DNA from: Anaerolineae bacterium
GTDB taxonomy: Bacteria; Chloroflexota; Anaerolineae; Fen-1058
Reading direction: 5' to 3'
Length of the DNA: 64,000 bases
NCBI GenBank assembly: GCA_041300525.1
Contig: JBGLNJ010000001.1
Span: 748,854-812,853 of the forward strand
Shown here: piece by piece, positions 4,014 through 63,924 of the stretch
Position numbering within the stretch: position 1 is the first letter of the stretch
Layout: each line of letters starts with the position of its first letter
Program-made: the position numbers and the translations under genes
Notes under the pieces: model-generated
Databases searched by the model: none
Told to the model about the DNA's origin: nothing
Seen by the model: only the letters and a program-made list of their open reading frames with translations

Positions 4014-4370
4014 TTATACCCACCCCGCCATCCTGCTATAGAGCATGGCCGCTAGCTCATAGCAAAAGATGGTGAAGCGAGAGTGTGTCTGTAGCCATTT
4101 GTATCCGAAAGCCGGTTCGCCCTCTGAGAACACCGAAAGCCAGTAAAACTCTTTCCAGCCCAGTTTTGTTGCAGTTGCCACCGCGCGTCTTGTGTAGAGG
4201 TCGAGGGTGACCAAGGTGGGGTGTTGCAGATGTTCTGCTTGAACGATGTCCATCGAATAAAGTAGATTCTCAAAGGTATTCAGTGACCGATCTTCTTCGA
4301 TGAGGCTCTCGCGCGGAACACCCAGGCGCATGGCATATTCATGAAGGATGAAAGATGAATTTGGATGCAC
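4014..4370 (-). pseudogene. DUF218 (YdcF/SanA/ElyC-like) C-terminal fragment, N-terminally truncated
   Basis: 118-aa ORF carrying the DUF218-type motif EEDRSLNTFENLLYS. The N-terminal half of the domain is absent, and the first codons are encoded by a heptamer-repeat hairpin. Confidence 0.35.
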
Positions 4371-4409
4371 TTTTCATCCTTCATCCCTCATCCTTCATCC
4401 TTGAAGGGG
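4339..4409. repeat. Inverted heptamer-array hairpin: (ATGAAGG)n ... (CATCCTT)n
   Basis: Tandem 7-nt units on the left arm and their reverse complements on the right arm, centred near 4370. Confidence 0.6.
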
Positions 4410-6904: not shown

Positions 6905-6936
6905 ACCTCATCATTCGACACCCGACATTCGATGAT
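6905..6936. repeat. Heptamer-type hairpin repeat (CATTCGA-like units) abutting the comEC start
   Basis: The sequence CATCATTCGACACCCGACATTCGATGATG runs directly into the ATGATG start. Confidence 0.4.
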
Positions 6937-19934: not shown

Positions 19935-20033
19935 GGAGTGTCGAATGTCGAGTTCCGAATGTCGAATTTGGAGTTGCACATTTCTCTCATTCGACATTCG
20001 TCAATTGACACTCGACATTCGAGGGGGGTGAGC
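19935..20033. repeat. Inverted heptamer-array hairpin (GTCGAAT/CGAATGT ... CATTCGA units) filling the map-rpmJ spacer where infA normally sits
   Basis: GTCGAATGTCGAGTTCCGAATGTCGAAT ... CATTCGACATTCGTCAATTGACACTCGACATTCG. Its translation forms the spurious N-terminal extension of the rpmJ-frame ORF. Confidence 0.6.
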
Positions 20034-20983: not shown

Positions 20984-21091
20984 CCGATCAGTGATCAGTT
21001 ACTCTGTCAATCAGTTCTCAGTTATGGTTGGCCGAGTGACTGATTGACTGTTTACCGAGTAACTGAGCAACGATTACTATCAGGAGGAAGC
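20984..21091. repeat. Heptamer-periodic intergenic repeat (GATCAGT / ACTGATTGAC / CCGAGTAACTGAGCAAC motifs). It shares the 17-mer CCGAGTGACTGATTGAC with 23174..23254.
   Basis: GATCAGTGATCAGTTACTCTGTCAATCAGTTCTCAGTTATGGTTGGCCGAGTGACTGATTGACTGTTTACCGAGTAACTGAGCAACGATTAC between rpsK and rpsD. Confidence 0.6.
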
Positions 21092-23173: not shown

Positions 23174-23254
23174 GTAGTCAATCAGTCGCTCAACTAATCA
23201 GTAATCGGTGACTGAGTAACTGATTGACTGAGCAACTGATCACCGAGTGACTGA
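23174..23254. repeat. Heptamer-periodic intergenic repeat, second copy of the family seen at 20984..21091
   Basis: GTAGTCAATCAGTCGCTCAACTAATCAGTAATCGGTGACTGAGTAACTGATTGACTGAGCAACTGATCACCGAGTGACTGATTGACC. Confidence 0.6.
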
Positions 23255-23992
23255 TTGACCAGGTATAAAGCGACCATCGCGTATGACGGGACGGACTATC
23301 ACGGCTTTCAGCGCCAGGCTCCAGAGCATGAACCGACGATTCAAGGTGAAATAGAGCGGGCGCTGACCCAGATCGGCCAGCCGGGTGTCACCATCCTGGG
23401 CAGCGGGCGCACAGACGCAGGCGTTCACGCCAGCGGTCAAGTGATTGCGTTTAGCGCCGAATGGCGGCACAGCCGGCAAGACTTGCAACGCGCGCTCAAC
23501 GCGACACTCCCGGCGGACATTGCCGTGCTGGACCTGGACGAAGCGGCTTGCGATTTTCACCCGCGTTACGACGCGGTGAGCCGCGAGTACGTTTACACGA
23601 TTTACAATGCGCCTGTGCGGCATCCGCTTTACCGGTTGAACGCGCTGCACATCGCCGATCTACTCGATGTGAAAGCGATGGATGCAGCGGCGGCAGAGCT
23701 GGTAGGCGAGCATGACTTTGCCGCCTTTGGCCTTCCGACGGCAGGAGATGTCACCGTCCGGCGGATGCTGCGAGCGGAATGTCGAGCCGAGTTGCCGTTG
23801 GTGCGGCTGGAACTGGAAGCGAATGGCTTTCTGTACCGCATGGTGCGCAGCATTGCTGGGACGCTGCTCCTGGTAGGGCGGGGCGAGATGACGCGGGATC
23901 AGTTTCGCGCCGTGATGGAATCGCGCGACCGTTCCCGCGCTGGCGCGCCGGTTCCGCCGCAAGGGTTGTGTCTGACGCGCGTGAACTATTGA
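23255..23992 (+). CDS. truA: tRNA pseudouridine(38-40) synthase TruA
   Basis: ...YKATIAYDGTDYHGFQRQ..., including the catalytic Asp region; TTG start. Confidence 0.85.
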   Translation: MTRYKATIAYDGTDYHGFQRQAPEHEPTIQGEIERALTQIGQPGVTILGSGRTDAGVHASGQVIAFSAEWRHSRQDLQRALNATLPADIAVLDLDEAACDFHPRYDAVSREYVYTIYNAPVRHPLYRLNALHIADLLDVKAMDAAAAELVGEHDFAAFGLPTAGDVTVRRMLRAECRAELPLVRLELEANGFLYRMVRSIAGTLLLVGRGEMTRDQFRAVMESRDRSRAGAPVPPQGLCLTRVNY

Positions 23993-29576: not shown

Positions 29577-29892
29577 TCTTCCTTTCCATTTTGTCCGATG
29601 AACGGCTGGCGTCGCCGGCCACCTGGCATTTATTCGGGATACTTGATTGTACTCCCAAAAGGCGGGGGGACACAAGTGGCCCCACACGGTCAGCGGGGTT
29701 GAAGAGACTCGTGGAAAGTACGTTGAGGTGAAACAAGCAGCAAGCGGGAGGCGTTCAAGGGGGTTCGAGTCCGATGGCTCATAGGGGTGCATGTCCGAGC
29801 GGTGGCAGCGTGATATTTGCGTAAAGACCCGGCGCTAGAGTTGGTGCAGCTGGCGATCCCGCGCCGCGTCTACACGCAGACCCTCCCGATGA

Positions 29893-29943
29893 CCGACGGA
29901 GGACGAACGACGAATGACATGGTCGTTCATCCTCCGTCATTCA
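29893..29943. repeat. Inverted heptamer-array hairpin (GGAGGAC GAACGAC GAATGAC ... GTCGTTC ATCCTCC GTCATTC) overlapping the stop codon of the channel gene
   Basis: Read directly from the sequence. Confidence 0.6.
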
Positions 29944-30841: not shown

Positions 30842-30935
30842 TCGACTTGATGCGAACGACGGACGTTCGATTCCGTCATTCGTCGTTCGTCACGCGAAGC
30901 GTCCCTCTTTAGGGGGGTTCGCCATTCGCCATTCG
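30842..30935. repeat. Heptamer-periodic hairpin repeat (TTCGTCA / GCCATTC units) between flotillin and pspA
   Basis: ...TCCGTCATTCGTCGTTCGTCACGCGAAGCG...GTTCGCCATTCGCCATTCGTCATGAC. Confidence 0.55.
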
Positions 30936-33065
30936 TCATGACTTGGCCGCTGCGGCATAGCGCAGATAGATATCTTCAAAGTTGGCGTCGGCCAGGAAGG
31001 GCAGCAGCGCCAACGCCGCGCGCGCCTGGGCGACGGCGGGCTTGTCGGCCTCGGCGGCCTTGGCTTCCAGTTGATCGAGCACCTGGCTCACGGTCTGCTT
31101 CTTGAGCTTGTTCACGTCCAGCGTGCGATCCACCACGGCCATGAGCTGTGGCATGAGGGTCGCCACCTGCTCCAGCGTCATCCTCTGGCCGGGCTGTTCT
31201 TTCTTGCCGTTGCCCATCACTTTGTCGAGCAACTGGCTGCCCAGTTCCTTGACCTGCGGCGGCACCGCGCCCACCACGTCATTCATCCCTTCGGCAAACG
31301 ACATCAGGCGCAGGATGCTTTCGGCGGCATCGGGCGTGCCATACATCTTGATCTGCATGTTAGCAATCGCCGCGCCGATAGCTTGCGCGCGCGCCACACC
31401 GATCTGAACCTGGGCATCAAGCTGCATGCGCTGCAACTCTAACTTTTGGCTCACGTTGTCGAACGCCGCCAACGCTTCGGCCTTGGCCTTTTGGCCTTCG
31501 GCTTCGGCCAACCCCTTGGCCTTGACCGTCTCGGCTTCGGCCAGACCTTTGGCGCGGATGACCTCGGCCTCGACCTGGGTGGCCTCGGCCTTGGCGCGGA
31601 TCACGTCAGCCTCTGCCGTGCCTTGCAAGCGAGACGCCTCGGCTTTGGCGCGCAAGACTTCGGCTTCGGCCAGACCGATCGCGCTGGAGCGAGCGCGTTC
31701 GGCGTCGGCGAGCATCTTTTCGGCGTCGCTTTCGGCCTGCGCTTGAGTGCGTTTGGTTTCGGCCTGCTTTTGCGCCGCCTCGAACTCGGCCTGGGCGATT
31801 TGCTTGAGCGCAGCCGCTTGCGCTTCGGCATCGCGAACCTTTTTCAGCACCTCGATCTCGACGGCATTCTTGCGGTCAATCATCAAGCGCTGCGCGTCGC
31901 GCTCGGCCTGAATGACCTGGATAGCGGCCTCACGCCTGGCCCTGGCCGTCTCTTCGACGGTCGTGACGTCCTGCGCGGCCTGCTCGCGTTGAGCGGACAC
32001 CAACAAGCGTTCTTTTTCCGCCGCCTCACGCTTTTGCTGCTCGGTGAGCACCGCGATCTGTTTGGTCTGCTCGGTCACTTCGCTGGCCTGGTTGCGCACA
32101 ATTTCGGCCACCTGGTATTCCTGCTTCTTGCGCTCGTCCTGCACCAGGATGGTCTGCTCCATCTCGATCTCGGACAACTTGACCGCGCGCTCTTTGGCGA
32201 TGCGCCCCTGTTCCGCCGATTGCTCCTGCTCATAGATAGACTTGTCGGCGGTGGATTTTTCGACCGCCTGGCGCGTGCGCACCTCGCGGTTTTGCGTGGC
32301 GGTGGCAAAAGCCAGGTCTTGCTCCATGGTCAGCTTTTCTTTAGCCGTGTTAATGTCGCGTTGTTTGATCTCGACTTCGGTCTTGCGCTCGATGTCGTTG
32401 CGCTCGCGCTGCGCTGCCTGAATGACCTGAGCATTGGCGCGGGCCACCTGAGCGCCGAACACGTCGTCGGTGCCGAACGAGCCTTGACGGGCCGCCTTGA
32501 GCGTGAGGATGCTCACGCTTTCCAGCACCAGGCCGTTTTCCTCCAGGTCGCTCTTGACGCGGTTTTGGACTTCCATGATAAACTTTTCGCGTTCCTGGTG
32601 CAGGCTCATCAAGGTAAAGGTGGCGGCCACATCGCGCAGCGCGCCGTCGAGCTTGGCCTCGACCAGCGTCTTGATGGCATTCGCGTCCACGGACTTTAAT
32701 CCAATCGTGCGCGCGGCGTCAATGATGCCTTCCACCGTCGGGCTGACCTTGATGTAAAAAATAGCCTTGATGTCCGCATACTGCGGGTCTTTGGTGAGGA
32801 GCGCGTTCTGCTCGGTGCGCTCGATCTCGATTGCCATCGTGCCCAGGTCTACCCACGTGACCATGTGGATGAACCCGAACACCCACGACCCGCCGTTCAT
32901 CACGACCTTGGGCGGGGCGTCGGGCTTGCGCAAAAATCCGCCCGTGCGCACGAACGCCCGGTTGGCTGGCGCTTTGACGTAGGACTTGGCAATCATCGCA
33001 AAGAACACCAAGACTGCGATGCCGACAAGACAAGAGATGGTGACTGCTAGTAACATGGGATCCAT
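30936..33065 (-). CDS. Flotillin-like protein (SPFH/band-7 domain plus a long Ala/Glu-rich coiled coil), 709 aa
   Basis: N-terminal TM, SPFH domain (...GGSWVFGFIHMVTWVDLGTMAIEIE...), and extended EA-repeat flotillin-type coiled coil. Confidence 0.85.
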   Translation of the reverse strand: MDPMLLAVTISCLVGIAVLVFFAMIAKSYVKAPANRAFVRTGGFLRKPDAPPKVVMNGGSWVFGFIHMVTWVDLGTMAIEIERTEQNALLTKDPQYADIKAIFYIKVSPTVEGIIDAARTIGLKSVDANAIKTLVEAKLDGALRDVAATFTLMSLHQEREKFIMEVQNRVKSDLEENGLVLESVSILTLKAARQGSFGTDDVFGAQVARANAQVIQAAQRERNDIERKTEVEIKQRDINTAKEKLTMEQDLAFATATQNREVRTRQAVEKSTADKSIYEQEQSAEQGRIAKERAVKLSEIEMEQTILVQDERKKQEYQVAEIVRNQASEVTEQTKQIAVLTEQQKREAAEKERLLVSAQREQAAQDVTTVEETARARREAAIQVIQAERDAQRLMIDRKNAVEIEVLKKVRDAEAQAAALKQIAQAEFEAAQKQAETKRTQAQAESDAEKMLADAERARSSAIGLAEAEVLRAKAEASRLQGTAEADVIRAKAEATQVEAEVIRAKGLAEAETVKAKGLAEAEGQKAKAEALAAFDNVSQKLELQRMQLDAQVQIGVARAQAIGAAIANMQIKMYGTPDAAESILRLMSFAEGMNDVVGAVPPQVKELGSQLLDKVMGNGKKEQPGQRMTLEQVATLMPQLMAVVDRTLDVNKLKKQTVSQVLDQLEAKAAEADKPAVAQARAALALLPFLADANFEDIYLRYAAAAKS

Positions 33066-35319: not shown

Positions 35320-35360
35320 TCAGACGAAGGACGAAAGGCCATCGTTCGTCCTTCGTCATT
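35320..35360. repeat. Inverted heptamer-array hairpin (GACGAAG GACGAAA ... CGTTCGT CCTTCGT CA) between lgt and the tlpA-like gene
   Basis: Read directly from the sequence; it overlaps the tlpA-like stop codon. Confidence 0.55.
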
Positions 35361-37512: not shown

Positions 37513-38817
37513 CTACTTGCCGAACGTGATCCGGTAGATAACCCCGCCCTTGTCGTCGCTAACCATCAAGCTGCCGTCCGGCGCGACGGCCAACCCCACG
37601 GGCCGCCCCGAAACCTGACCGCCCTTCAGCCAACCTGTGGCAAAGTCCTTCACCAGCCCGGGGGGCTTGTCGCCGTCGAGCGGCACAAACACCACCTTGT
37701 AACCGGTGGGCACGCTGCGATTCCATGAGCCGTGGAACGCAATGAACAAGCCGTTGCGATATTCGGATGGGAACTGTGCGCCGGCGTAAAACGCCAACCC
37801 CAGCGGGGCCGAGTGTGCCTGCATTTCGACGACCGGCTTGGCGACGCCATCGCACGCGCCGGGATTGCCAAATTCGGGGTCAATGATGCGCCCACTGTGA
37901 CAGCGCGGCCATCCGGCGTCCAGGCCGTCTTTGACGATGTAGATCGTTTCGGGCGGGTTGTCGTCGCCGAGCCAGTCGCGTCCCATGCCGGTGGCCCATA
38001 GCTCGCCGGTGCGCGGATTGATCGCCAAGCCAACGGCATTCCGCAATCCGCGCGCGAACACGCGCCCATTCTTGCCGTCCACATCGTATACCATCACAGC
38101 AGCGCGGCGCTCGTCTTTTTCAATACACACGTTGCAGCTCGACCCGATCGAAACGTACAGCTCGCCCGTGGGGCCAAACAACACGGTGCGTGTGTTGTGA
38201 CCACCGGACGGCAGGCCATCAATCACTACACTCCGCTTGATGGCGCGATGCGTGATGGGATCAAGCTCGAGCCGCGTGATGCGCGTCGTCTCGCCGACAT
38301 ACAGCGAACCATCCGATGCGAATGCCAGTGAGGACGGCGCGATGAGATTCTCGGCCACGACGATGGGCGCATCGGCCACGCCATCGTCGTTGGCATCCAC
38401 CAATGCCACAATCCTGTTGGCTCCACGCTCGGCCACATACAACACGCCATCCGGCCCATAGGTCATAAAGCGCGGCCCGTTGAGCCGGGCAAAGAGAGTA
38501 GCGCGAAAACCGGACGGCAGTTGCACATCGGTTGCGATAGGAGCACGATTGACCGGCGTCGGCTTGGGCAAGGCTGTGGCCGTCGGTGAAACGGCTGGAG
38601 GTGGAGACACGACGAGTGGCGTTGACGTGGCAGGTGGAGTTGGTGCGCTAGTTGGCGGTAAGCTCACAAGCGGCAAAGTAGCAGGCGAAATTGGCGTACC
38701 AGTCGGCGGCACGCTCGCGATTGGCGCGGCCTTACATGCCGCCACCAAACACATCAGCAAGACAGCGCCGACACACCCGAGTCGACACCTCCTCACAGGT
38801 CTCCATTCATCATTCAA
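37513..38817 (-). CDS. PQQ-dependent sugar (glucose/sorbosone) dehydrogenase family lipoprotein
   Basis: Lipobox LLMCLVAAC, Pro/Thr/Ser linker, six-bladed propeller motifs (GPDGVLYVAERGANRIVAL; GPDGSLMVSDDKGGVIYR). Annotated start is inside a heptamer repeat; the likely true start is the GTG at ~38796. Confidence 0.75.
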   Translation of the reverse strand: MNDEWRPVRRCRLGCVGAVLLMCLVAACKAAPIASVPPTGTPISPATLPLVSLPPTSAPTPPATSTPLVVSPPPAVSPTATALPKPTPVNRAPIATDVQLPSGFRATLFARLNGPRFMTYGPDGVLYVAERGANRIVALVDANDDGVADAPIVVAENLIAPSSLAFASDGSLYVGETTRITRLELDPITHRAIKRSVVIDGLPSGGHNTRTVLFGPTGELYVSIGSSCNVCIEKDERRAAVMVYDVDGKNGRVFARGLRNAVGLAINPRTGELWATGMGRDWLGDDNPPETIYIVKDGLDAGWPRCHSGRIIDPEFGNPGACDGVAKPVVEMQAHSAPLGLAFYAGAQFPSEYRNGLFIAFHGSWNRSVPTGYKVVFVPLDGDKPPGLVKDFATGWLKGGQVSGRPVGLAVAPDGSLMVSDDKGGVIYRITFGK

Positions 38818-38851
38818 TATTCGTCACTCGTCACTCGACATTCGTCATTCA
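38797..38851. repeat. Heptamer tandem array (CATTCAT CATTCAA TATTCGT CACTCGT CACTCGA CATTCGT CATTCAT) between the acyl-CoA dehydrogenase stop and the PQQ-DH start
   Basis: Read directly from the sequence. The ORF's MNDEW start is encoded by GAATGAT GAATGGA units. Confidence 0.6.
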
Positions 38852-40576
38852 TCAAAACGGGCTGGCCAGAACAACGTCTCTGACTTGCAGCGGCGTTGGA
38901 TCGGCGGCCTGAATCGCCGCGGCCGCGCCTCGCACCTTGGGCAAATGCTCGGCGATGTAGACGTGAGCCATCGCCCGCTTCCTGTCTGAGGCGCGCGCGT
39001 CTCGCAGCAGCAGCCACGAGTTGACCACATACGCCGCCATGTCCATCACGTCGGAAGCGTAATACTCGATCACGGGCGTGTCACACTCTTTCAAGTGATC
39101 GGCGCACCGGTTGAAAAGTGCGGTCGCGTCCATCACCTGATTCTTGAGCGGGGCCAGCTCCAGGCCATAGTCCTGCGCGGCCCAGTCGTTCAACAAGTCG
39201 TCGAGCGCGTGGCCCAACAACTTGCCGATGACGGCGACCACTTGCATTTGGCTGGTGCCCTCATAAATGTTCGTCACGCGAACGTCGCGGTAATGGCGCT
39301 CCACATTAAACTCGCGCATGTAACCGACGCCGCCATGAACTTGCATCGCCTGGTAACAGACGCGGTTGCCCATCTCGGTGGCATAATACTTGGTCAGCGG
39401 CGTCAGGGTTTCGGCCAGCTTGCTGGCCCGCTTGAGGCGCGCTCGATCCGCCGGGTCCGGCTTGGCGCTTTCGGCGATGCGCCGGTCGTAGGCCTTTTCC
39501 AAATCCACCCAGCGCCCGGCTTCGCAAACCAACGCCCGCACCGACTCGATCTCACTCCGCATCGTCAGGAGCATACGAGTCACAGCCGGCAGGTTGCGAA
39601 TGGCCTGATTGAACTGGACACGCTCGTGAGCATAGCGGTGCGCTTCGCGATAGGCGGCTTCGGCAATGCCCAGCGCCTGGGCCGATACCGCCAGCCGCGC
39701 GCCGTTCATCAACCCCATCGCATAACGAATCAGTCCCATGCGCCGCTTGCCGATCAACTGCGCCGGCGTGTTGTTGTACTGGATTTCGCACGTCGGCGAA
39801 GCGTGCAGGCCGACTTTGTTTTCGATGCGGCGGATCTGAACCGTCTCGTCCTTTTCCACCAGGAACAGCGAAAGGCCGCGTGGATCGGTCGTGCCCTCTT
39901 CGCTCCGGGCCAGCACCACCATAATCTCGGCGCAGCCGTTGGTGATGAAGCGCTTGACGCCGTTGATGCGCCACACGCCGGCCGCCTCGTCAAACGTGGC
40001 GCGCGTCTGCACCGATCCCAAATCGGACCCGGCGTCCGGCTCGGTGAGCACCATCGCGCCCGCCACCTCGCCGCGGGCAAAACGAGGCAACACGCGCGCT
40101 TTCATCTCTTCGCTGCCAAACTCGCTGATGGACGAGGCGATCTCTTGCAGCCCGAAAACCGTCATCAGCCCGGCCTCGGCGCGCGAGACGATCTCGACCA
40201 TCATCTGGTAGATCGTCTCCGGCAAGTTCATCCCGCCGTATTCCCACGGCAGCATTATCCCCATCAGCTCGGCCTGCTTGAGCGCCTTGAGCGCGTCTTG
40301 AGTGGCAGCCGAGTAACGCACCTGGCCTGCCTCGAAATGCGCGCCCTCTTCATCCGCTTCCGCCGCGCGCGGAGCGACCACCGTCGCGCAGATTTCGCCG
40401 AGCACTTTTAACAGGATGCCGTAATTATCTTTGGCGTCCTCATAGTGACGCGGCGCGGAGGGATACTTTTCTCGATAGGTGTAACCCTTTTCTCGAATTT
40501 CGACGACCTCGCGCAAGTCGGTCCTATCCAGATAAAACTGAAGGTCAAGGTTATCCAGGAAAAAATTTTCGGCCAT
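38852..40576 (-). CDS. Acyl-CoA dehydrogenase family protein (long, ~570 aa)
   Basis: ACAD N, middle and C-terminal domain motifs (GGMNLPETIYQMMVEI...; YEGTSQMQ). Confidence 0.85.
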   Translation of the reverse strand: MAENFFLDNLDLQFYLDRTDLREVVEIREKGYTYREKYPSAPRHYEDAKDNYGILLKVLGEICATVVAPRAAEADEEGAHFEAGQVRYSAATQDALKALKQAELMGIMLPWEYGGMNLPETIYQMMVEIVSRAEAGLMTVFGLQEIASSISEFGSEEMKARVLPRFARGEVAGAMVLTEPDAGSDLGSVQTRATFDEAAGVWRINGVKRFITNGCAEIMVVLARSEEGTTDPRGLSLFLVEKDETVQIRRIENKVGLHASPTCEIQYNNTPAQLIGKRRMGLIRYAMGLMNGARLAVSAQALGIAEAAYREAHRYAHERVQFNQAIRNLPAVTRMLLTMRSEIESVRALVCEAGRWVDLEKAYDRRIAESAKPDPADRARLKRASKLAETLTPLTKYYATEMGNRVCYQAMQVHGGVGYMREFNVERHYRDVRVTNIYEGTSQMQVVAVIGKLLGHALDDLLNDWAAQDYGLELAPLKNQVMDATALFNRCADHLKECDTPVIEYYASDVMDMAAYVVNSWLLLRDARASDRKRAMAHVYIAEHLPKVRGAAAAIQAADPTPLQVRDVVLASPF

Positions 40577-44727: not shown

Positions 44728-46386
44728 GTGAATCGTAAAGTTTTGATCATCGGCCTGGACGGCGCGACGTGGACGAACCTCCAGCCGTGGATTGACGCGG
44801 GCAAGCTGCCGCACCTGGGTCAACTCGTGGCCGACGGCGCGGCCGGCCCGCTGACGACGACGATCCCGCCCGTGTCGGCTTCGGCGTGGGTGTCGTTCGC
44901 CACAGGCTGCAACCCCGGCCAGCACGGCGCATTCGACTTTGTGTTCCCCCGCCCAAATGCTTACGACATCGGCGTGGTCAACGTCAATGTGCGCAGCGTG
45001 GCGCCGTTCTGGAAGGTGATCGAGGATGCGGGCGGACAGGTGGGGCTGGCGAGCGTTCCCATCACCTACCCGCCGCAGCCCATCCACGGCTGGACGGTGT
45101 GCGGGTTCCTCGTGCCCAACGAGCAGGCCGCGTATACTCAACCGCCCGAACTCAAGGAGCAAATCAAAGCGGCGGGCCTCACCTGGCCGCTGCACGAGTT
45201 CGAGGGCAACCGCAGCCGCGACCCGCGCAAGTTTCTTCAAGACATGCGGTACTTTGACGAGTCGCGCACGCAGGTGGTGACGTGGCTGATGCGCAATCGC
45301 CCGTGGGATTTGGTGTCGTTCGTCATCAAGACGACGGACACGACCCAGCACGAAATCTGGCACCTGCTCGATCCGCAACATCCACGCCACGATGCCGCGA
45401 TGGCCGCGCGCGTGAAGGACGACATCCTGGCGTATTTCCAGGCGATGGATGCGTGCGTGGGCCAACTGGTCCAAGCGGCCGGGCCGGGGGCGACCGTCGT
45501 CGTGATGAGCGATCACGGCGGCGGGCCGTTCGAGAAATTCTTTCACGTCAACAACTGGCTGGCTTTGCAAGGGTTCCTCAAGTTCAAGCGGACGCCGCTG
45601 ACCCTGGTCAAGCGCGCGCTGTTTGCGGCCGGCTTTACGCCCATCACCGCACTCAAGATCGTCAACCTGCTGCGATTGGGCAAGCTGCGCAAGAACGTCA
45701 AGCGCGGGCGCGGGCGCGGCTGGATGGGGCAACTGTTCCTCAGTTTGCGCGACGTGGATTGGACGCGCACTCGCGCATTTTCCATCGGCAACTTTGGGCA
45801 GATTTACATCAACGCAAAGGGCGCGCGGCCGCAAGGCATTGTCGAGCCGGGCGACGAGTACGAAGCTGTGCGCGACAAAATCATTCGGCAAGCACTCGCA
45901 TTGTGCGATCCCGAAACAGGCGATGCCGTCATCCGCGCAGCGTACAAGCGCGAGGAGCTGTATCACGGCGGGCGGCTGAACTATGCGCCCGACATTATCC
46001 TGCACACCGACCGCAGCAAGTACGTCTCCTTCGGCCACGCCGATTTTGGGAGCAACAAGCTCATCGAGCCTTCCATCGGACAGACCGGGCATCACACCAT
46101 GGAGGGCATCGTGATCCTGCGCGGCGCGGACATTCCGGCTGGCGTGCGCGTCGAGGGCGCGAACATCATGGACATTGCGCCGACGGTGCTGGCGCTCATG
46201 GGTCTGGATGTGCCGGAGGAGATGGATGGCAAGGTGCTGCTTGGAGTGGAGACAGGGGGACAAGGTGACAGGGAAGTTGGCAGAGGAATAGGGGAACAGG
46301 AGAACAGAGGAGAGGAAAATCCATATTCTGAGGAAGATGAGGCGCAGGTGATGGAGCGCCTGCGCGAGTTGGGATATGTTGCCTAA
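44728..46386 (+). CDS. Alkaline phosphatase superfamily protein (type I phosphodiesterase / nucleotide pyrophosphatase-like), paralog A
   Basis: GTG start; VLIIGLDGATW...TTIPPVSASAW metal-site motifs; SDHGGG. Acidic C-terminal tail. Confidence 0.8.
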   Translation: MNRKVLIIGLDGATWTNLQPWIDAGKLPHLGQLVADGAAGPLTTTIPPVSASAWVSFATGCNPGQHGAFDFVFPRPNAYDIGVVNVNVRSVAPFWKVIEDAGGQVGLASVPITYPPQPIHGWTVCGFLVPNEQAAYTQPPELKEQIKAAGLTWPLHEFEGNRSRDPRKFLQDMRYFDESRTQVVTWLMRNRPWDLVSFVIKTTDTTQHEIWHLLDPQHPRHDAAMAARVKDDILAYFQAMDACVGQLVQAAGPGATVVVMSDHGGGPFEKFFHVNNWLALQGFLKFKRTPLTLVKRALFAAGFTPITALKIVNLLRLGKLRKNVKRGRGRGWMGQLFLSLRDVDWTRTRAFSIGNFGQIYINAKGARPQGIVEPGDEYEAVRDKIIRQALALCDPETGDAVIRAAYKREELYHGGRLNYAPDIILHTDRSKYVSFGHADFGSNKLIEPSIGQTGHHTMEGIVILRGADIPAGVRVEGANIMDIAPTVLALMGLDVPEEMDGKVLLGVETGGQGDREVGRGIGEQENRGEENPYSEEDEAQVMERLRELGYVA

Positions 46387-46461
46387 TGCGTACTGCGTGC
46401 TGCGTAATGAAACACGGAATACGCAGTACGCAATACGTAGCACGAAGCACATTCTAATTCG
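46387..46461. repeat. Inverted heptamer-array hairpin (TGCGTAC TGCGTGC TGCGTAA ... ACGCAGT ACGCAAT ACGTAGC ACG), copy 1, flanking the GT2 gene
   Basis: Begins inside the TAA stop of the upstream gene. Perfect 12-nt arms TGCGTACTGCGT / ACGCAGTACGCA. Confidence 0.65.
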
Positions 46462-47421
46462 ATGGACACGTTACTCGACCTATCTATCGTTCTTCCCGTA
46501 TACAACGAAGCAGGCGCGTTGCCGGCGTTGCATGCCGAACTCACGGCTTGCCTTTCTGCGTTGGGCCGGGCCTATGAGATCATTGCCGTGGACGACGGCT
46601 CGCGCGACGAGAGCCTGGCAATCCTCAAGCAGTTGGCCGCATCCGATCCGCACTTGATCGTCATCGCGCTGCGGCGCAACTTTGGGCAGACGGCGGCGTT
46701 CGCGGCGGGTTTCGACCATTCGCGCGGCGGCGTGGTGATCACGCTGGACGCCGACGGCCAGAACGACCCGGCGGACATCCCGGCCATCCTGTCCAAGCTC
46801 GACGAGGGCTATGACATCGTCTCCGGCTGGCGGCAGAATCGCAAAGAGCCGTTCTTCCTGCGGCGGCTGCCATCCATCGTCGCCAACTGGCTGATCTCGC
46901 GCTCGACGGACGTAAAGCTGCACGACTATGGCTGCTCGCTCAAAGCGTACCGGATCGAGGTGGTCAAGAACGTGCGCCTCTACGGCGAGCTGCACCGCTT
47001 TATCCCGGCGCTGGCTTCGTGGATGGGCGTCAAAATCGCCGAGACGCCGGTCAAGGACCGCAAGCGCACGCATGGCAAGAGCAAGGTCGGCCTTGACCGC
47101 ACCTGGCGCGTCCTGCTCGACCTGCTGACGGTTTCGTTTCTGCTGAGTTATAGCGCGCGCCCGATGCAGTTGTTCGGCGGGCTGGGGCTGGTATCGTTCG
47201 GAATCGGGACGCTGATTGCCTTGTATCTGTCCGCGCTCAAGTTGCTCTATGGCGCCAGCTTGTCTAACAAGCCTTCGCTGTGGCTGGCCGTTCTGCTGAT
47301 CGTCGTTGGCGTGCAGTTCATTTCGCTGGGCCTGATTGCCGAGATGATGACGCGTACGTACCACGAGACGCAGAACAAGCCGATTTATGCGGTGAGGGAA
47401 ATCGTCAAACGTGATGCGTAA
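46462..47421 (+). CDS. GT2 polyprenyl-phosphate glycosyltransferase (DPM1/GtrB/ArnC-like) with C-terminal TM helices
   Basis: LSIVLPVYNE...DDGSRD...TLDADGQND...GWRQNRKE, plus two C-terminal TM helices. Confidence 0.85.
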   Translation: MDTLLDLSIVLPVYNEAGALPALHAELTACLSALGRAYEIIAVDDGSRDESLAILKQLAASDPHLIVIALRRNFGQTAAFAAGFDHSRGGVVITLDADGQNDPADIPAILSKLDEGYDIVSGWRQNRKEPFFLRRLPSIVANWLISRSTDVKLHDYGCSLKAYRIEVVKNVRLYGELHRFIPALASWMGVKIAETPVKDRKRTHGKSKVGLDRTWRVLLDLLTVSFLLSYSARPMQLFGGLGLVSFGIGTLIALYLSALKLLYGASLSNKPSLWLAVLLIVVGVQFISLGLIAEMMTRTYHETQNKPIYAVREIVKRDA

Positions 47422-47500
47422 CGTACTTCGTACTGCGTAATGCATAACGGGACAGAGCACAAAGTACGCAGTACGAAACACGTAGCACGTCTGCTACCTG
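47422..47500. repeat. Inverted heptamer-array hairpin, copy 2 (CGTACTT CGTACTG CGTAATG ... TACGCAG TACGAAA CACGTAGCACG), in direct orientation relative to copy 1
   Basis: Shares ...GTACTGCGTAATG... and ...ACGCAGTACG.AA.ACGTAGCACG with copy 1. It also begins inside the upstream TAA stop. Confidence 0.65.
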
Positions 47501-54853: not shown

Positions 54854-54944
54854 GTTTTTCTCCGCGAATCACGCGAATCCCCGCCAATCTTTCTGATTCG
54901 CGCCCATTCGCGTTATTCGCGGAAAAAGATATGGAGGCTAACCC

Positions 54945-55517: not shown

Positions 55518-56536
55518 TCCGCGAATCAATCGCCAAACTGATGGATGATCAGAACCTGACACTCGCCGAAGCCGAAAGTGTGATGAACGAGATCATGGAC
55601 GGCTTGGCGACACACGCGCAGATGGCGGCGTTCCTGACGGCGCTGCGTTTGAAAGGCGAGACGGTGGACGAGATCACCGGCTGCGCGAAGGTGATGCGCG
55701 ACAAAGCGGTGGCGGTCCAGCCGACCCGTACGGATCTGGTGGACACGGCCGGCACGGGCGGCGACGGCGCGGACACGTTCAACATTTCCACGACGGCCGC
55801 ATTCGTCATCGCCGGCGCGGGACTGGGCGTGGCCAAGCACGGCAATCGGGCCGTGTCGAGCCAGAGTGGCAGCGCGGATGTGCTCGAGGCGCTCGGCGTG
55901 AACCTCGATCTGACGCCGGTCCAGGTGGCACGGTGCATTGACGAGATCGGCCTCGGGTTTTTGTTCGCCCAAAAGCTGCACCCCGCGATGAAGAACGTCG
56001 CGCCGGTCCGCAAAGAACTCGGCATCCGCACCATCTTTAACATCCTCGGCCCGCTGACGAATCCCGCGCGCACGCCCGCGCAGATCGTGGGCGTGTACGA
56101 CGCGCGGCTCACGACGACGATGGCGCACGTTTTGCACGCGCTCGGCGCGCGCGCCGCATTTGTGTTTCACAGCGAGGACGGCCTGGACGAGCTCACGACG
56201 ACGGGCATTAACCAAGTCGCACGTTTTGACAACGGCACGGTTTACGAAGGGGAACTGGATGCGTGCGCGTTGGGGCTGGCGCGCGCCTCGCGCGCCGACT
56301 TGCGTGGCGGTCGCCCCGATCAGAACGCGCAGACCACCCAGAACGTCCTCTCCGGCGCAGAGTGCGGTCCCAAGCGCGACGTGGTGGCGTTGAACGCGGC
56401 GGCGGCACTTGTCGCCGGCGGCAAGGCGCGTGACCTCCGGGAAGGTCTCGAACGCGCGAGCGATTCAATGGATTCAGGCGGGGCCATGCGCGTACTGGAT
56501 GGCCTGGTGGCGTTGAGCAACAGTTTTAGATTGTAG
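55514..56536 (+). CDS. trpD: Anthranilate phosphoribosyltransferase
   Basis: ...[22 protein letters not shown]...; 340 aa. Confidence 0.9.
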
Positions 56537-56586
56537 ATTTCAGGTTGCAGATTTTAGATTAGCCGTCCCATTCTAACAATCCGCAA

Positions 56587-56690: not shown

Positions 56691-56716
56691 ATCCGCAATT
56701 TAGGATCGGAAATCCA

Positions 56717-57529
56717 ATGATTCTTGATGACATTACCGCAAACACGCGCGCCGAGGTAACCGAGCGGCGTCGGCGTGTTCCACTTGCAGACATGCGCGCC
56801 CGCGCGGAATTGGCGCCGCCCGCGCGAGATTTTGAAAGCGTGCTCAAACACGAGCACGTCGCGCTGATTGCCGAAGTCAAATGGGCATCGCCTTCGCGCG
56901 GCGCGCTGCGCGCCGAGTTGGACCCGGCACAACTGGCGCGCGTCTATGCCAAGAGCGGCGCATCTGCCATTTCGGTCTTGACCGACGCCAAGTATTTCCA
57001 CGGCAGCCTGGCCGACCTGGAAGGCGCGCGCGCAGCGGTTGACGTGCCGGCGCTGCGCAAGGATTTCGTCGTGGACGAGTACCAGCTTTACGAAGCGCGC
57101 GCGCACCGGGCTGACGCGGCCCTCCTCATCGCGCGGATTCTGTCGGATGCCCAACTGCGCGATTACCTCGCGCTGGCGCGTTCGCTCGGCTTGGGCGCGC
57201 TGACCGAAGTTCACGATGAGGCGGAACTCGACCGCGCGCTGGCGGCGGAGGCGCGCATCATCGGCATCAACAATCGCAACCTGGCTGATTTTACCGTTAG
57301 CCTGGCGACGACAGAGCGGCTCGCGCCGCGCATCCCGCCCGGAAAAATCATCGTGGCTGAGAGCGCCATCTTTACCCGTGCAGATGTTGAGCGTGTCGCG
57401 CGAGCGGGCGCGCACGCGGCGCTCGTCGGTGAAGCCTTGATGCGCGCGGGAGACGTGGGGGCGAAAGTCAAGGAACTGTGCCAGGTCGCGTTTTGCCTCC
57501 TGCACCTTGCGCCCTGCGATTTGAGTTGA
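56717..57529 (+). CDS. trpC: Indole-3-glycerol phosphate synthase
   Basis: ...ALIAEVKWASPSRG...; 270 aa. Confidence 0.9.
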   Translation: MILDDITANTRAEVTERRRRVPLADMRARAELAPPARDFESVLKHEHVALIAEVKWASPSRGALRAELDPAQLARVYAKSGASAISVLTDAKYFHGSLADLEGARAAVDVPALRKDFVVDEYQLYEARAHRADAALLIARILSDAQLRDYLALARSLGLGALTEVHDEAELDRALAAEARIIGINNRNLADFTVSLATTERLAPRIPPGKIIVAESAIFTRADVERVARAGAHAALVGEALMRAGDVGAKVKELCQVAFCLLHLAPCDLS

Positions 57530-57535
57530 ACCAAT

Positions 57536-58264
57536 ATGACCTACGTCAAAATCTGCGGCATCACGAATCTGGACGACGCACTGGCAGCGGCAGAGGCGGG
57601 CGCAGACCTGTTGGGCTTTGTGTTCTTTTCCCGCTCGCCGCGCTGCATTGACCTGGAACGCGCGGGCGAAATCGTCGCGGCGCTCAAGCGGCGTGGCAAC
57701 GCTCTGCGTTTTGTCGGCGTGTTTGTGAACGAGCCGCTTGAGCGGGTGCGCGCGATTGCGGCGACCGCCCAACTCGATGTGGCGCAACTGCACGGCGACG
57801 AATCGCCGGAGATGGTGAGTGACTTGTCATCGCTCGGAGTTGAAACTCTGAGCTGCAAAACGACGCCGGATCAATCCGGCTTCCCAGCCTCATTCATGGG
57901 GCGCGGTAGATTGATCGCCGTGCGAGCATTGCGCCCGCGCCATGAAGCCGAGGCGCAGGCACAGGTGGAAGAGTATCGCGCTGCGGTGAACGGGAACGTG
58001 CCCGCGTTCATCGTGGACGCCTTTGACACGCAGCGATTCGGCGGGACCGGCGCGCGCGCCGATTGGGACATTGCCGCGCGAATCGCGCGCGAGTTCCCCA
58101 TCTTGTTGGCAGGTGGTTTGAATGTGGACAACGTCACGGAAGCCATTCGTGTCGTCCGACCCTGGGGCGTAGATGTGTCGTCCGGCGTCGAGCGCGCGCC
58201 GGGACTCAAAGACCAAGATAGAGTACGGCAGTTTGTTCGAGCGGCGAAAGGCGCACGTGGATGA
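57536..58264 (+). CDS. trpF: Phosphoribosylanthranilate isomerase (slightly extended, 242 aa)
   Basis: MTYVKICGITNLDDALAAAEAGADLLGFVF... Confidence 0.85.
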   Translation: MTYVKICGITNLDDALAAAEAGADLLGFVFFSRSPRCIDLERAGEIVAALKRRGNALRFVGVFVNEPLERVRAIAATAQLDVAQLHGDESPEMVSDLSSLGVETLSCKTTPDQSGFPASFMGRGRLIAVRALRPRHEAEAQAQVEEYRAAVNGNVPAFIVDAFDTQRFGGTGARADWDIAARIAREFPILLAGGLNVDNVTEAIRVVRPWGVDVSSGVERAPGLKDQDRVRQFVRAAKGARG

Positions 58265-58318
58265 GGCGAAAGACGGGGGAAGAAAACTCTGATCCTTCGT
58301 CGGGAATTGCGAGGTGAC

Positions 58319-59494
58319 ATGAACGGACGATTCGGACCTTATGGGGGCCAGTTTGTCCCCGAAACACTGATGCCTGTGCTGGCAGAGTTGGAAGAATCGC
58401 TCAATGCGGCGCTGGCCGATCAAGAATTCTGCGCGCAACTGGCCGACCTGGCCGCGCATTACTCGGGCCGGCCCACGCCGCTCTATTTTGCGCGGCGGCT
58501 GACGGAATATTGCGGCGGCGCGAAAATCTATCTCAAGCGTGAAGACCTGGCCCACACCGGCGCGCATAAAATCAACAACGCGCTCGGACAAGGGTTGCTG
58601 GCGCGGCGTATGGGCAAGGCGCGCATCGTGGCGGAAACAGGCGCGGGACAGCACGGCGTCGCGTCGGCGGCAGTGTGCGCGATGCTCGGCCTTCAGTGCG
58701 TCGTCTACATGGGCACGGAAGACATGCGCCGTCAAGCGCCGAATGTGTTTCGCATGAAATTGCTGGGCGCCGAGGTGCGCCCGGTGGATGGCGGCAGCGC
58801 CACACTCAAGGATGCCATCAACGAAGCCATCCGCGATTGGGTGACGAACGTCCGCGACACGCATTACCTGCTCGGCTCCGCGCTCGGCCCGCATCCTTAT
58901 CCGATCATGGTGCGCGAATTTCAATCCGTCATCGGCCACGAGGCGCGCGCGCAAATCCTGGACGCGGAAGGCCGGCTGCCGGATTTGCTCATCGCGTGCG
59001 TCGGCGGCGGGTCGAATGCTATCGGTTTGTTTGATGCTTTCCGCGACGACGACGTCGCCCTGCTCGGCGTCGAGGCGGGCGGATTGGGGATTGCCTCAGG
59101 CCAGCACGCGGCGCGGTTTGCCGAGGCGCGGCCTGGCGTGTTGCAGGGGACGTACACCTACGTCTTGCAAGACGACGACGGTCAGATTCGCGGCACGCAC
59201 TCGGTTTCGGCCGGGTTGGACTATGCCGCCGTCGGCCCGGAGCACGCTTACTTGCGCGACACCGAGCGCTCGGGTTACACCTATGCCACCGACGATGAGG
59301 CGCTCAACGCGTTCGCCAAGCTGTCGCAGATCGAAGGCATCATCCCTGCGCTCGAATCGGCGCATGCAGTGGCGGAGACGATCAAGCGAGCGCCTATGAT
59401 GAAGCGCGACCAGATTATCCTGGTGAATTTATCGGGGCGCGGCGACAAGGACTTGCAGACCGTTATGGATGCTGGAATGGCGAATGACGAATGA
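58319..59494 (+). CDS. trpB: Tryptophan synthase beta subunit
   Basis: [18 protein letters not shown]...; PLP-binding [10 protein letters not shown]-terminal MANDE* is encoded by a heptamer repeat. Confidence 0.9.
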
Positions 59495-59540
59495 CGAAGG
59501 CATAGTTCATCTTTCGTCGTTCGTCCTTCGTCAGTCTTGA
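59474..59540. repeat. Inverted heptamer-array hairpin (GAATGGC GAATGAC GAATGAC GAAGG ... CTTTCGTCGTTCGTCCTTCGTC) spanning the trpB stop
   Basis: Read directly from the sequence; the TGA stop lies within the GAATGAC unit. Confidence 0.6.
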
Positions 59541-59550
59541 TAGGAGAGGC

Positions 59551-60342
59551 ATGAGCCGATTAGACGAAACTTTCGCCCGATTGAAAACGGAACGTCGCGC
59601 GGCGTTGATGCCATACCTGCCGCTCGGATTCCCGACGCTGGACGTGTCTCGGCAACTGATTCGCGCGGCAGCCGACGCGGGCGCAGATGTCATTGAACTG
59701 GGCGTCCCTTTCAGCGACCCGTTGGCGGACGGCCCGGTGATTCAACGCGCCACATACGCCGCGCTGCAAAACGGCATGACGCTGGCGGAATGTTTCGAGA
59801 TGGCGCGTAAAGCGCGCCAGGCGGGCGTGACGGTTCCTCTCGTCTTGATGGGCTATTACAATCCCATCTTGCGATTCGGCGTCGAAGCATGCGCGCGCGC
59901 AGCGCAAGACGCGGGCGCGGACGGCTTTATCGTGCCGGATTTGCCGCCTGAAGAAGCGGGCGCGTTGGACGCAGCCTGCCGTGCCCGTGAACTCGATTTG
60001 ATTTTTCTGGCCGCGCCGACGAGCACGGCTGAACGATTGCGCCTCATCGCTGAGGCGACGCGCGGGTTCATGTACCTGGTGTCCGTCGTCGGCGTCACGG
60101 GCGCGCGAGAGCGGATGGCCGCCGACCTCACCGAATTTGTGGCGCGCGTGCGGACCGCCACGACGAAACCGGTGTGCGTGGGCTTTGGCATCGCCAACGC
60201 AGAGACGGCGCGAGCCGTCGCCGGATGCGCGGACGGCGTGATCGTGGGCAGCGCGCTCGTCTCGCGGATTGGGGAAGCCGAGCACGCAGTTCGTGCGGCT
60301 CAACAGTTCATCGCAGAATTGCGCGCGGCGATAGATGCTTGA
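59551..60342 (+). CDS. trpA: Tryptophan synthase alpha subunit
   Basis: ...ELGVPFSDPLADGPVIQ... Confidence 0.9.
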   Translation: MSRLDETFARLKTERRAALMPYLPLGFPTLDVSRQLIRAAADAGADVIELGVPFSDPLADGPVIQRATYAALQNGMTLAECFEMARKARQAGVTVPLVLMGYYNPILRFGVEACARAAQDAGADGFIVPDLPPEEAGALDAACRARELDLIFLAAPTSTAERLRLIAEATRGFMYLVSVVGVTGARERMAADLTEFVARVRTATTKPVCVGFGIANAETARAVAGCADGVIVGSALVSRIGEAEHAVRAAQQFIAELRAAIDA

Positions 60343-60497
60343 CAAAGAGATATGATGTGGTAAACTACTGCCCACTTGAGGCCTGTCATGCCGAGACTCT
60401 ATTCGACCTTTGCGTTTTATTATTACTTTTATTTTACCGCCATAGCGCGGGGTCGAATCGTCACGCCGAACGACTAGGCTAGTCGAACGAGATTCAA

Positions 60498-60533
60498 AAG
60501 AGCGTGGGATTTCAACCCCACGCTCTTTTTGTT
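60498..60533 (+). terminator. Rho-independent terminator after trpA
   Basis: AGAGCGTGGG-ATTTCAA-CCCACGCTCT followed by TTTTTGTTTATC. Confidence 0.6.
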
Positions 60534-60551
60534 TATCTTTTTCCATCGTCA

Positions 60552-60608
60552 CCCTTGCGAAGGTTTTCGCTGATTTCGCAGCGGACGCCGGGCCAACCTT
60601 CGCAAGGG
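60552..60608 (+). promoter_or_regulatory. 14-bp-stem hairpin (CCCTTGCGAAGGTT-N29-AACCTTCGCAAGGG) in the aroH 5' leader
   Basis: Perfect inverted repeat ending 20 nt before the aroH ATG. Confidence 0.35.
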
Positions 60609-60628
60609 CGGTTCCTGGGAGTTTCAGC

Positions 60629-60994: not shown

Positions 60995-61057
60995 ATCGGA
61001 GGCCGAAATGGTTTCGAGTCGCGCGACCAGCGTGGCTGAAGCGATTGGGCGGACAGC

Positions 61058-61930: not shown

Positions 61931-61962
61931 TTTCGGATTCGGAAATTCAGCGGAGGAGAAAC

Positions 61963-62799: not shown

Positions 62800-62812
62800 G
62801 GAGGGCCCCAGC

Positions 62813-63847: not shown

Positions 63848-63924
63848 CGGTGGATTTTAGGAGAGTGCAATTAAGGGGGCAATGTCGCCGTTTGAGATTG
63901 GAGATTTTAGATTTGGGAGCATCC

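Follow-up and report, generated by a model that had tools for sequence, protein, structure and literature searches.

We analysed a 64,000-nucleotide (nt) stretch of an Anaerolineae bacterium genome (contig JBGLNJ010000001.1, positions 748,854 to 812,853 of the forward strand; hereafter the window), in which tandem arrays of 7-nt units recur at gene junctions. At the junction of trpB and trpA, such an array appears to have taken over the end of the upstream gene: TrpB translation stops at a TGA supplied by the array, which also encodes the four final residues (ANDE). The arrays probably represent a population of heptanucleotide simple-sequence repeats that were seeded at gene junctions and grew by slippage, TrpB having been truncated in this way. 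The elements, numbered E1 to E15, were found by Tandem Repeats Finder, an inverted-repeat search, and an autocorrelation scan, and the relatives, whose loci carry numbers with the prefix L, were gathered through locus and contig look-ups.

The end of TrpB is read from a heptamer array

A preliminary description of this DNA had read the TrpB C-terminus straight from tandem heptamers, and this holds: the 3' end of trpB (58307-59494), ATG GCG AAT GAC GAA TGA, translated as MANDE*, lies within the array at 59474-59498 (GAATGGC GAATGAC GAATGAC GAAG). Tandem heptamers occupy both arms of an imperfect hairpin at 59474-59537 (E14, Table 1), and the fold of 59465-59550 has an energy of -33.8 kcal/mol. 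The E14 sequence was identical across three independent assemblies (L001, L169, and L170).

The relative L168, whose TrpB is 87% identical, has no hairpin between trpB and trpA. Its trpB, with the 3' sequence ...GGA ATG ACC AAG TCA GTT TTG ATG GGA GAA GC-ATGA, encodes the tail MEAGMTKSVLMGEA* and shares ATGA with the start of trpA. The window spacer 3' of the hairpin, TCAGTCTTGATAGGAGAGGCATGA, is identical to the L168 coding tail at 31 of 35 positions, so the E14 hairpin probably sits within the former 3' end of the trpB open reading frame (ORF). The relic tail, now spacer, holds the trpA ribosome-binding site GGAGAGG, and trpA starts at 59551. The array-free L168 trpB already has GAATGAC and a small palindrome, TGAC-CAA-GTCA, at the hairpin site.

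Other relatives end TrpB differently. In L167 (91% identical), the E14 hairpin is longer by one heptamer and the tail is MDAGMTKDG*; the letters of the L167 3' arm are the same as in the window, where this arm is in turn 19/20 identical to that of E6. The trpB end of L082 carries another, non-heptamer hairpin (tail MDSDGKF*), L002 has a CAGTGTT hairpin between trpB and trpA (tail MANQ*), and L083 has an ATGA overlap and no hairpin there (tail METDSRR*). Past the motif GDKDL[QE]TVM, the TrpB tail ranged from 3 to 31 residues among the 120 best homologues listed, and four tail forms were found inside a cluster of proteins at least 90% identical. Heptamer hairpins also lie 3' of trpB in several Acidobacteriaceae and in a Caldilineaceae metagenome-assembled genome (MAG), and an Anaerolineae MAG has a tandem heptamer array after trpB without an inverted arm. 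The MAN common to the window and L002 (VMANQ*) was considered as ancestral coding and dropped when more relatives gave the tail lineage MDAGM(TK...).

Heptamer arrays occupy gene junctions in the window

Period-7 arrays of three units with at least 80% match numbered 10 in the window, compared with 0.25 ± 0.43 in shuffles, and at four units 11 were observed against 0.12. Periods 8-12 were near zero, and period 7 was the sole strongly enriched non-codon period. Exact GAATGAC was present in 16 copies (8.5 ± 2.6 expected), a count reached in 0 of 100 shuffles.

About 15 heptamer elements were found, all at gene junctions. Most consist of paired inverted arrays, from which one strand can form an imperfect hairpin of 20-30 bp, and three (E9, E13, and E15) are one-armed. 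Their unit families are GNCGAAT or GACGAAT, RCGTNNN, TAACTGA-like, and GAGATTG or TAGATTG. The elements fill very short spacers of co-directional genes, mostly within operons (trp, ribosomal-protein), and all 15 lie in spacers or touch only the first or last few codons. Typically an element begins on the upstream stop or at most 3 nt from it and ends 5-20 nt ahead of the downstream start. By Pfam, the junctions include map/small ORF, rpsK-rpsD, rplQ-truA, trpE-trpG, trpD-trpC, trpB-trpA, trx-lgt, Band7-pspA, and acyl-CoA dehydrogenase-GSDH. The closest genomes belong to Chloroflexota, and the nearest named relative is a Ca. Aquidulcis MAG.

None of E12-E15 was listed in a terminator scan of 53000-64000, in which the only strong terminator-like site was the hairpin 60496-60529, after trpA. 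Having no T run, the heptamer hairpins are not intrinsic terminators. A scan of the whole window against Rfam at gathering thresholds gave no match, the window has no tRNA genes, and no transposase or RAYT (repetitive extragenic palindrome-associated tyrosine transposase) domain was found among the window ORFs scanned against Pfam.

Twelve elements follow a gene. In eight of them the upstream stop lies inside the array, in unit 1, 2, or 3 (ion channel, Band7, thioredoxin-like, acyl-CoA dehydrogenase, phosphodiesterase, GT2, trpD, and trpB), and in the other four the array begins 1-3 nt past it (map, rpsK, rplQ, and trpE). The stops that had been placed in the first units of the elements flanking GT2 are indeed there (TAA 46384-46386 and TAA 47419-47421). 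The 7-nt periodicity often reaches back into the last one to four codons, and the deepest of the eight enclosed stops is that of trpB, 18 nt into the array. In other genomes (approximately 170 loci from several phyla), 86 arrays were near the end of a long ORF; 40 of these contain the stop and 9 abut it. Many of the arrays outside the window repeat the last codons and the stop, for example, GTT GGT CGT TAG TCGTTAG TCGTTAG.

The positions of all elements are collected in Table 1. E1 adjoins a 5'-truncated DUF218 fragment on the minus strand, and E3 ends just 5' of a small conserved-looking ORF (ATG about 20033). The Band7 stop TGA (30938-30936) is within the first unit of E7. E9 opens with the acyl-CoA dehydrogenase stop and extends into the first codons of the GSDH/PQQ (pyrroloquinoline quinone)-type dehydrogenase. 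E12 is kept in L082, and another unit family takes its place in L002. As separate observations, L162 has a 69-nt GCGTACT / GCGTGAC hairpin (17614-17682) in the Band7 5' leader, for which the window at about 33113 is an empty site, and its DUF2085 gene (about 15351-16103) is followed by a TGACGAA-type hairpin in a region deleted from the window.

Table 1. Heptamer elements of the window and the parts of the trpB-trpA element E14
Feature	Positions	Strand	Description
E1	4341..4402	+	GATGAAR / TTCATCC hairpin, 12 nt 5' of the KDPG (2-keto-3-deoxy-6-phosphogluconate) aldolase start (4414)
E2	6909..6931	+	Three CATTCGA-like units, directly 5' of the ATGATG start of a DUF4131/ComEC-like ORF
E3	19936..20022	+	GAATGTC / GACATTC hairpin, 1 nt past the map stop (TAA 19932-19934)
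E4	20987..21074	+	Hairpin between rpsK (stop 20981-20983) and rpsD (ATG 21092); TCAGTTA / TAACTGA-like units
E5	23176..23260	+	Hairpin between rplQ (stop 23171-23173) and truA
E6	29890..29943	-	GACGRAN hairpin; ion-channel stop TGA (29939-29937) in the first unit, GAATGAC
E7	30843..30941	-	ATGACGA ATGGCGA ATGGCGA array, small G/C hairpin, and second GACGAAC hairpin
E8	35325..35358	-	CGAAGGACGAA / TTCGTCCTTCG hairpin directly at the thioredoxin-like stop TGA (35358-35356), ahead of lgt
E9	38804..38854	-	One-armed, eight units (TGATGAA TGACGAA TGTCGAG ...)
E10	46377..46442	+	TGCGTAC / GTACGCA hairpin; phosphodiesterase stop TAA in the first unit
E11	47419..47483	+	CGTACTN hairpin, continuous with the GT2 tail CGT GAT GCG TAA
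E12	54857..54927	+	GCGAATC / GATTCGC hairpin, 3 nt past the trpE stop, before trpG
E13	56527..56560	+	One-armed TTNTAGA array; trpD stop TAG 56534-56536 in the second unit
E14 5' arm	59474..59503	+	GAATGGC GAATGAC GAATGAC GAAGG; codes for the last TrpB residues and the stop
trpB stop TGA	59492..59494	+	In the third heptamer unit; probably array-derived, not ancestral (array-free L168 reads through)
E14 loop	59504..59508	+	Loop of the fold
E14 3' arm	59509..59537	+	TCTTTC GTCGTTC GTCCTTC GTCAGTC (GTCNTTC units), imperfect reverse complement of the 5' arm
Relic of the ancestral trpB tail	59531..59554	+	TCA GTC TTG ATA GGA GAG GCA TGA, now spacer
E15	63891..63918	+	GAGATTK array; its end is the ribosome-binding site, GGGAG, of the gene that follows (ATG 63925)

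Most stop codons under the elements appear ancestral

The preliminary description had proposed that element insertion remodels gene termini. For trpB this stands, in view of the stop, the ANDE residues, and the comparison with L168; as a general rule it finds no support, most of the stops compared elsewhere being ancestral. In an ortholog comparison of the kind that the description had suggested for trpB and the PQQ-dehydrogenase, element-free orthologues share the stop position and the terminal residues at four to five of eight junctions, whereas trpB differs. Most stop and start codons under the elements are thus probably ancestral and not donated, and terminal residues seem to be rewritten only occasionally, as at TrpB.

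The first three letters of E9 are the acyl-CoA dehydrogenase stop, TGA (38854-38852). Of the 120 best homologues listed, almost every one has 574 amino acids (aa), the rest having 570-576, and the protein ends with ..LASPF or a close variant (40 tails among the homologues listed). TTT TGA is also found in the array-free L164 and L165, and in L163, which has a degenerate TGACGA-like run only. In L166 the tail is ..AHVE* (CAT GTC GAA TAA, a GTCGAAT-like unit) instead of ..ASPF*. The thioredoxin-like protein ends with ..MK* (AAA TGA) in four relatives, and in L163, which lacks the element, its gene is joined to lgt by a perfect ATGA overlap. The GT2 end KRDA* is common to the window, L172, L173, and several more distant homologues, and the phosphodiesterase end GYVA* to the window and L171. 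Acidobacterial TrpB ends with ..LKLD* (GAT TGA) both with and without an array. Band7 of the window has one residue more than its counterparts in L162 and L163. The ion channel keeps its length, with NVE* beside a GACGAAT-type array in the window and PAA* beside an RCGT-type array in L163. The TrpD tail past SF[KR] is variable, and the direction of change could not be assigned.

Start codons near the arrays

The start of the GSDH-type protein at TTG 38817 (MNDEW) had been described as array-encoded. It does lie in the sixth unit of E9, but its position is probably ancestral, because it corresponds to MNNRW (ATG AAT AAT CGC TGG) in L162, where the spacer is 214 nt long and array-free. Relative to MNNRW, MNDEW differs by two codons and by TTG in place of ATG, in phase with the array units. 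Initiation at GTG 38796 instead, with a GGAG site lying 4 nt 5' of it, would produce a classical lipoprotein signal; TTG 38817 and GTG 38796 are both candidates for the start in use.

The ATGATG start of the comEC-like ORF at 6932 directly follows the three units of E2, as had been noted. The DUF218 start GTG 4370, also attributed to an array, is inside E1 but in the loop position, where it is merely the first start codon after a stop. It is probably an ORF-calling artefact; the fragment is without the first ~44 positions of the Pfam profile, so the real start cannot be verified. The rpsD ORF start TTG 21044 within an arm was rejected as a mechanical ORF call, the true start being ATG 21092 (MARMIGP) behind AGGAGG. 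For truA, the only possible start is TTG 23255, in the last unit of E5 (TGATTGAC). Both truA and comEC start right after arrays without a Shine-Dalgarno sequence, whereas rpsD, trpA, and trpG keep AGGAGG or GGAG.

Array units resemble the end of the upstream gene

The unit of an array is usually the last codon of the upstream gene plus its stop. RCGTNNN arrays are found after ...GCG TRA at GT2 (three genomes), a zinc-ribbon gene (two genomes), the L163 ion channel, L168 trpC, and L002 trpD, and in the three GT2 genomes the tail CGT GAT GCG TAA runs on into the array. GACGAAT arrays follow ...A TGA C, and TAGATTG arrays follow AGA TTG TAG. Acidobacterial TGATTGA arrays follow GAT TGA, which is found also in array-free orthologues. 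The L168 trpC tail, VKREA-SNVRRQTSGVKRKA*, consists of four tandem 14-nt copies of the ancestral end AAACGTGAAGCGTGA, of which L002 has a single copy; it is best read as a plain in-situ duplication of the stop-spanning sequence.

In the 5' arm of E14, L167 exceeds the window by one 7-nt unit, and across genomes the trpB-trpA junction carries a GAATGAC hairpin (window), a CAGTGTT hairpin (L002), a plain hairpin (L082), or none (L083 and L168). These comparisons show elements that change quickly, unit by unit, with orthologous junctions bearing different unit families. Of the two arms, the 3' one, on the side of the downstream start, has changed less, leaving room for a function in downstream initiation. 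The element folds contain 21 G·U pairs versus 4 A·C mismatches. No defined ends or consistent target duplication were seen for the heptamer elements. The 13-mer GATGGAGCAGCGG, shared by the trx-lgt spacer of the window and the ion-channel spacer of L162, was considered as a sign of mobility and, having only two copies, was treated as chance.

Neighbouring features

The trpD-trpC spacer holds one of two 99%-identical copies of a palindrome of about 100 nt (-49 kcal/mol) that resembles a miniature inverted-repeat transposable element (MITE); the copies are at 56589-56690 (+) and 52599-52696 (-). The copy in the spacer is flanked by a 10-bp direct repeat, ATCCGCAATT, at 56579-56588 and 56691-56700, and the L082 spacer is without it. 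Approximately 40 nt 5' of trpE, which starts at 53345, a long palindrome (53237-53304) ends in a T run (..GAGAGGTTTTTTAT); it may act as a terminator or as an attenuator-like leader. The L082 trpC ORF continues into an extra domain of ~150 aa (3608-4080), which is lacking in the window and of which L083 has a short relic at about 570-650 (..LIERAEIDDL*). L082 is also longer by ~0.9 kb between trpF and trpB and by ~1 kb after trpA, and it has a second, divergent DAHP (3-deoxy-D-arabino-heptulosonate 7-phosphate) synthase at 9382-10419 (65% aa identity) that is not in the window.

In five relatives (L162-L166), etfB-etfA lie upstream of the acyl-CoA dehydrogenase gene, so the region 40602-41286 of the window holds a rearrangement breakpoint. 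The ORF 40657-41286 (-) is chimeric, joining QueG_DUF1730 to the last ~25 residues of the electron-transfer flavoprotein alpha subunit. A G/C-rich palindrome (40602-40647) adjoins it, and a similar one lies in the L165 spacer from etfA to the acyl-CoA dehydrogenase gene. Tandem repeats of 18, 36, and 54 nt are present within coding sequence at 34027-34233 and 2426-2537, in a YqiJ_N-like ORF (33528-34430, -) and a solute-binding-protein ORF (1184-2602, -). An ORF of 2468 aa (9962-17368, -) adjoins a PKD-domain protein (8799-9965), and its 5' end overlaps the secY ORF (16937-18277, +).

Discussion

Because the units usually copy the terminal codon and stop of the upstream gene, the arrays can be read as seeded on the junction; it appears that mostly the gene end seeds the array, not the reverse. 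Slipped-strand duplication of a heptamer spanning the junction (a stop, an ATGA or TGATG overlap, or a ribosome-binding site) would start and extend an array. In compact operons the junction may be the only site where a 7-nt duplication does no harm. The inverted arm could come from template switching, or from microhomology copying from another locus. An array that grows into the 3' end of an ORF, or reaches it as a copy, would cut the protein within a few codons and add a short array-encoded tail; the commoner outcome would be that the ancestral stop is simply turned into the first unit. Since 7 = 1 mod 3, a TGA, TAA, or TAG in the unit will have blocked every reading frame by the third copy, which limits the damage when an array invades an ORF.

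Several observations weigh against this reading. The families GACGAAT, RCGTNAN, TAACTGA-like, and GAGATTG recur at unrelated junctions and in different genomes, for which local seeding gives no explanation. The match between the 3' arms of E6 and E14 includes the order of the unit variants and points to copying between the two loci. The E8 insert (CGAAGGACGAA...) is not derivable from the L163 empty-site sequence AAATGATCTTTCC. On these three grounds, some copying between loci must presumably occur. The polarity of gain and loss at empty sites was assigned by parsimony with few genomes. The acidobacterial trpB-trpA hairpins compared (L018, L038, L052, and L071) have no compensatory changes, their unit variants being shuffled instead, and the folding energies summed to -349.5 in the sense and -337.8 in the antisense orientation, three elements folding better as antisense.

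The reverse order of events, in which mobile heptamer elements existed first and, on inserting at gene ends, supplied the flanking genes with their present start and stop codons, is unlikely as a general rule. It would suit trpB, whose four final codons and stop consist of array sequence and whose ancestral tail survives in the spacer, as well as the longer Band7, the ..AHVE* tail of the L166 acyl-CoA dehydrogenase, and the E6/E14 arms. Yet the stop, and usually the terminal residues, are ancestral in the acyl-CoA dehydrogenase, the thioredoxin-like protein, GT2, the phosphodiesterase, and acidobacterial TrpB; MNDEW is homologous to MNNRW of an array-free relative; the rpsD start in an arm is an artefact and the DUF218 start unverifiable; and no defined ends, target duplications, or transposase were found. 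Transposition in a stricter sense, with REP (repetitive extragenic palindrome)-, REPIN (REP doublet forming hairpin)-, or MITE-like palindromes moved by a Y1 transposase of the RAYT or IS200/IS605 type that prefers TGA/ATGA targets, is very doubtful. Intercistronic palindromes within operons do recall REP and bacterial interspersed mosaic elements (BIME), ATGA stands on either side of the E8 insert when compared with the L163 empty site, E6 and E14 have a common higher-order arm structure, and CGTC, the tag of REP families described in PMC3733652, recurs in 3' arms. But units, arm lengths, and loops differ at almost every locus with no common consensus, three arrays are one-armed, the L168 trpC tail is nothing more than local sequence repeated in tandem, the Pfam scan of the window ORFs gave no transposase domain, and the MITE of the window, with its near-identical copies and direct repeat, is unlike the heptamer elements.

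That the elements are selected RNA devices in polycistronic mRNAs, either shielding the upstream segment from 3'-exonucleases or acting as a coupling switch, is similarly hard to credit. As a switch, a ribosome terminating in the 5' arm would melt the stem and free the 3' arm and the next ribosome-binding site. For such a role speak the recurrence of trpB-trpA hairpins in Chloroflexota and Acidobacteriota despite sequence turnover, the stop in or at the 5' arm in 12/15 elements, the better-kept 3' arm, the fold of E14 (sense -33.6 versus antisense -22.7), and the starts of truA and comEC after arrays without a Shine-Dalgarno sequence, as is the case for TAACTGA repeats (PMC4679880). Close relatives, however, manage without a hairpin, using ATGA overlaps, and the one-armed arrays, the missing Rfam match, the shuffled rather than compensated hairpins, and the small overall sense advantage argue the other way. 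We likewise give little credence to a distinct and widespread class of junction elements (Chloroflexota, Acidobacteriota, and others) that is copied by microhomology and acts as translation-dependent switches, with the diversity of C-terminal tails as a side effect; here the terminating ribosome in the 5' arm would open the stem and expose the conserved 3' arm for initiation of the next gene. Coincidence of the periodicity and the overlap with gene ends is practically negligible. ATG and TGA in GAATGAC do follow trivially from the letters of the unit, but period-7 arrays are 40-90 times as frequent as in shuffles and recur at orthologous and non-orthologous junctions in many genomes.

With seeding at junctions and growth by slippage as the preferred explanation, the heptamer elements are most likely tolerated by-products, as judged from sequence comparison. 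Folded as hairpins within polycistronic mRNAs, they may have a secondary influence on the stability of mRNA segments or on translational coupling. They split once-overlapping, translationally coupled pairs (trpB/trpA and trx/lgt), which could change subunit stoichiometry. For annotation, it matters that ORF callers extend genes into an open hairpin arm (seen for rpsD and probable for DUF218) and that C-terminal tails beside arrays are unreliable for orthology. The arrays offer a concrete mutational route by which simple-sequence repeats would rewrite protein ends, and whether units regularly match the terminal codon plus stop can be tested. They also extend heptanucleotide-repeat biology, so far known from Cyanobacteria, Xanthomonas, and Beggiatoaceae, to Chloroflexota and Acidobacteriota.

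Comparison with known repeat systems

Terminal inverted repeats, target-site duplication, and near-identical dispersed copies, the marks of MITEs, were not seen for the heptamer hairpins, whereas the separate element of about 100 nt in the window has them. Rickettsia palindromic elements are palindromic repeats that alter coding sequence, being inserted in frame inside ORFs and translated. The window elements, in contrast, lie at gene ends and truncate tails through stop triplets. Cyanobacterial short tandemly repeated repetitive (STRR) heptanucleotide sequences were reportedly described by Mazel in 1990. Both STRR and the window arrays are dispersed intergenic tandem heptanucleotides with several unit families; however, STRR belong to heterocystous cyanobacteria, and the window has a Chloroflexota host and other units, so the arrays are not STRR. 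STRR are also mentioned for Calothrix PCC 7601 (PMC4692102). With REP, BIME, and REPIN (PMC3116915, PMC3733652), the elements share the form of imperfect palindromes in intercistronic spacers of operons, transcribed within the mRNA. REP and REPIN have a family consensus, near-identical copies, and a RAYT gene, whereas the window units are variable and heptamer-periodic with no such consensus; the search for a RAYT (Y1 transposase) gene was confined to the window, and none was found among the ORFs scanned.

Heptanucleotides have been described as the commonest class of long simple-sequence repeats in prokaryotes, with slippage as the proposed mechanism (Mrazek 2007, as cited in PMC4679880 and PMC4692102). 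In keeping with repeats of that type, which are tandem copies of a 5-11-nt unit beyond chance in length and number, the window has period-7 arrays above chance, changes of length by whole units, and a non-coding location. The GGGAATC heptamers of Xanthomonas and GGGGAYT heptamers of Nostoc (Rehm 2015, PMC4692102) are in intergenic excess, some are inverted pairs that could fold into stem-loops, and slippage was proposed for them. As with these repeats, the same junctions are occupied in related species, with variation of length and sequence and with inverted pairs. Unlike them, the window arrays are not G-rich sequences thought to form quadruplexes, and no link to stop codons or protein tails was described for the Xanthomonas and Nostoc heptamers (PMC4692102).

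TAACTGA repeats, known from Beggiatoaceae, Cyanobacteria, and Bacteroidetes (MacGregor 2015, PMC4679880), come close to the window elements, and closure of three frames and overlap with upstream stops were already published for them. They overlap upstream stops by at most ~18 nt, many stand directly before starts without a Shine-Dalgarno sequence, and one indirect repeat was found in 170 sets (PMC4679880). The window elements are likewise intergenic 7-nt tandems in operons, including a ribosomal-protein operon upstream of S4, and their stops lie in units 1-3 at eight junctions, with an overlap of at most ~18 nt. All four exact copies of TAACTGA in the window are within E4 (20995, 21018, and 21060) and E5 (23217). 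The window has no exact tandem pair of TAACTGA, the copies sitting among the variants TGACTGA, CAACTGA, and TGATTGA. CAACTGA and GAACTGA arrays were seen in the acidobacterial loci L029, L047, L050, and L072. In contrast to the TAACTGA repeats, there are many unit families here, most arrays are paired into long hairpins, the host belongs to Chloroflexota, and the unit tracks the upstream terminal codon. A literature search for such elements in Chloroflexi returned nothing specific. What sets the present elements apart is their Chloroflexota and Acidobacteriota hosts, the many families, the regular pairing into hairpins, the unit made of terminal codon and stop, and truncation that leaves a relic tail.

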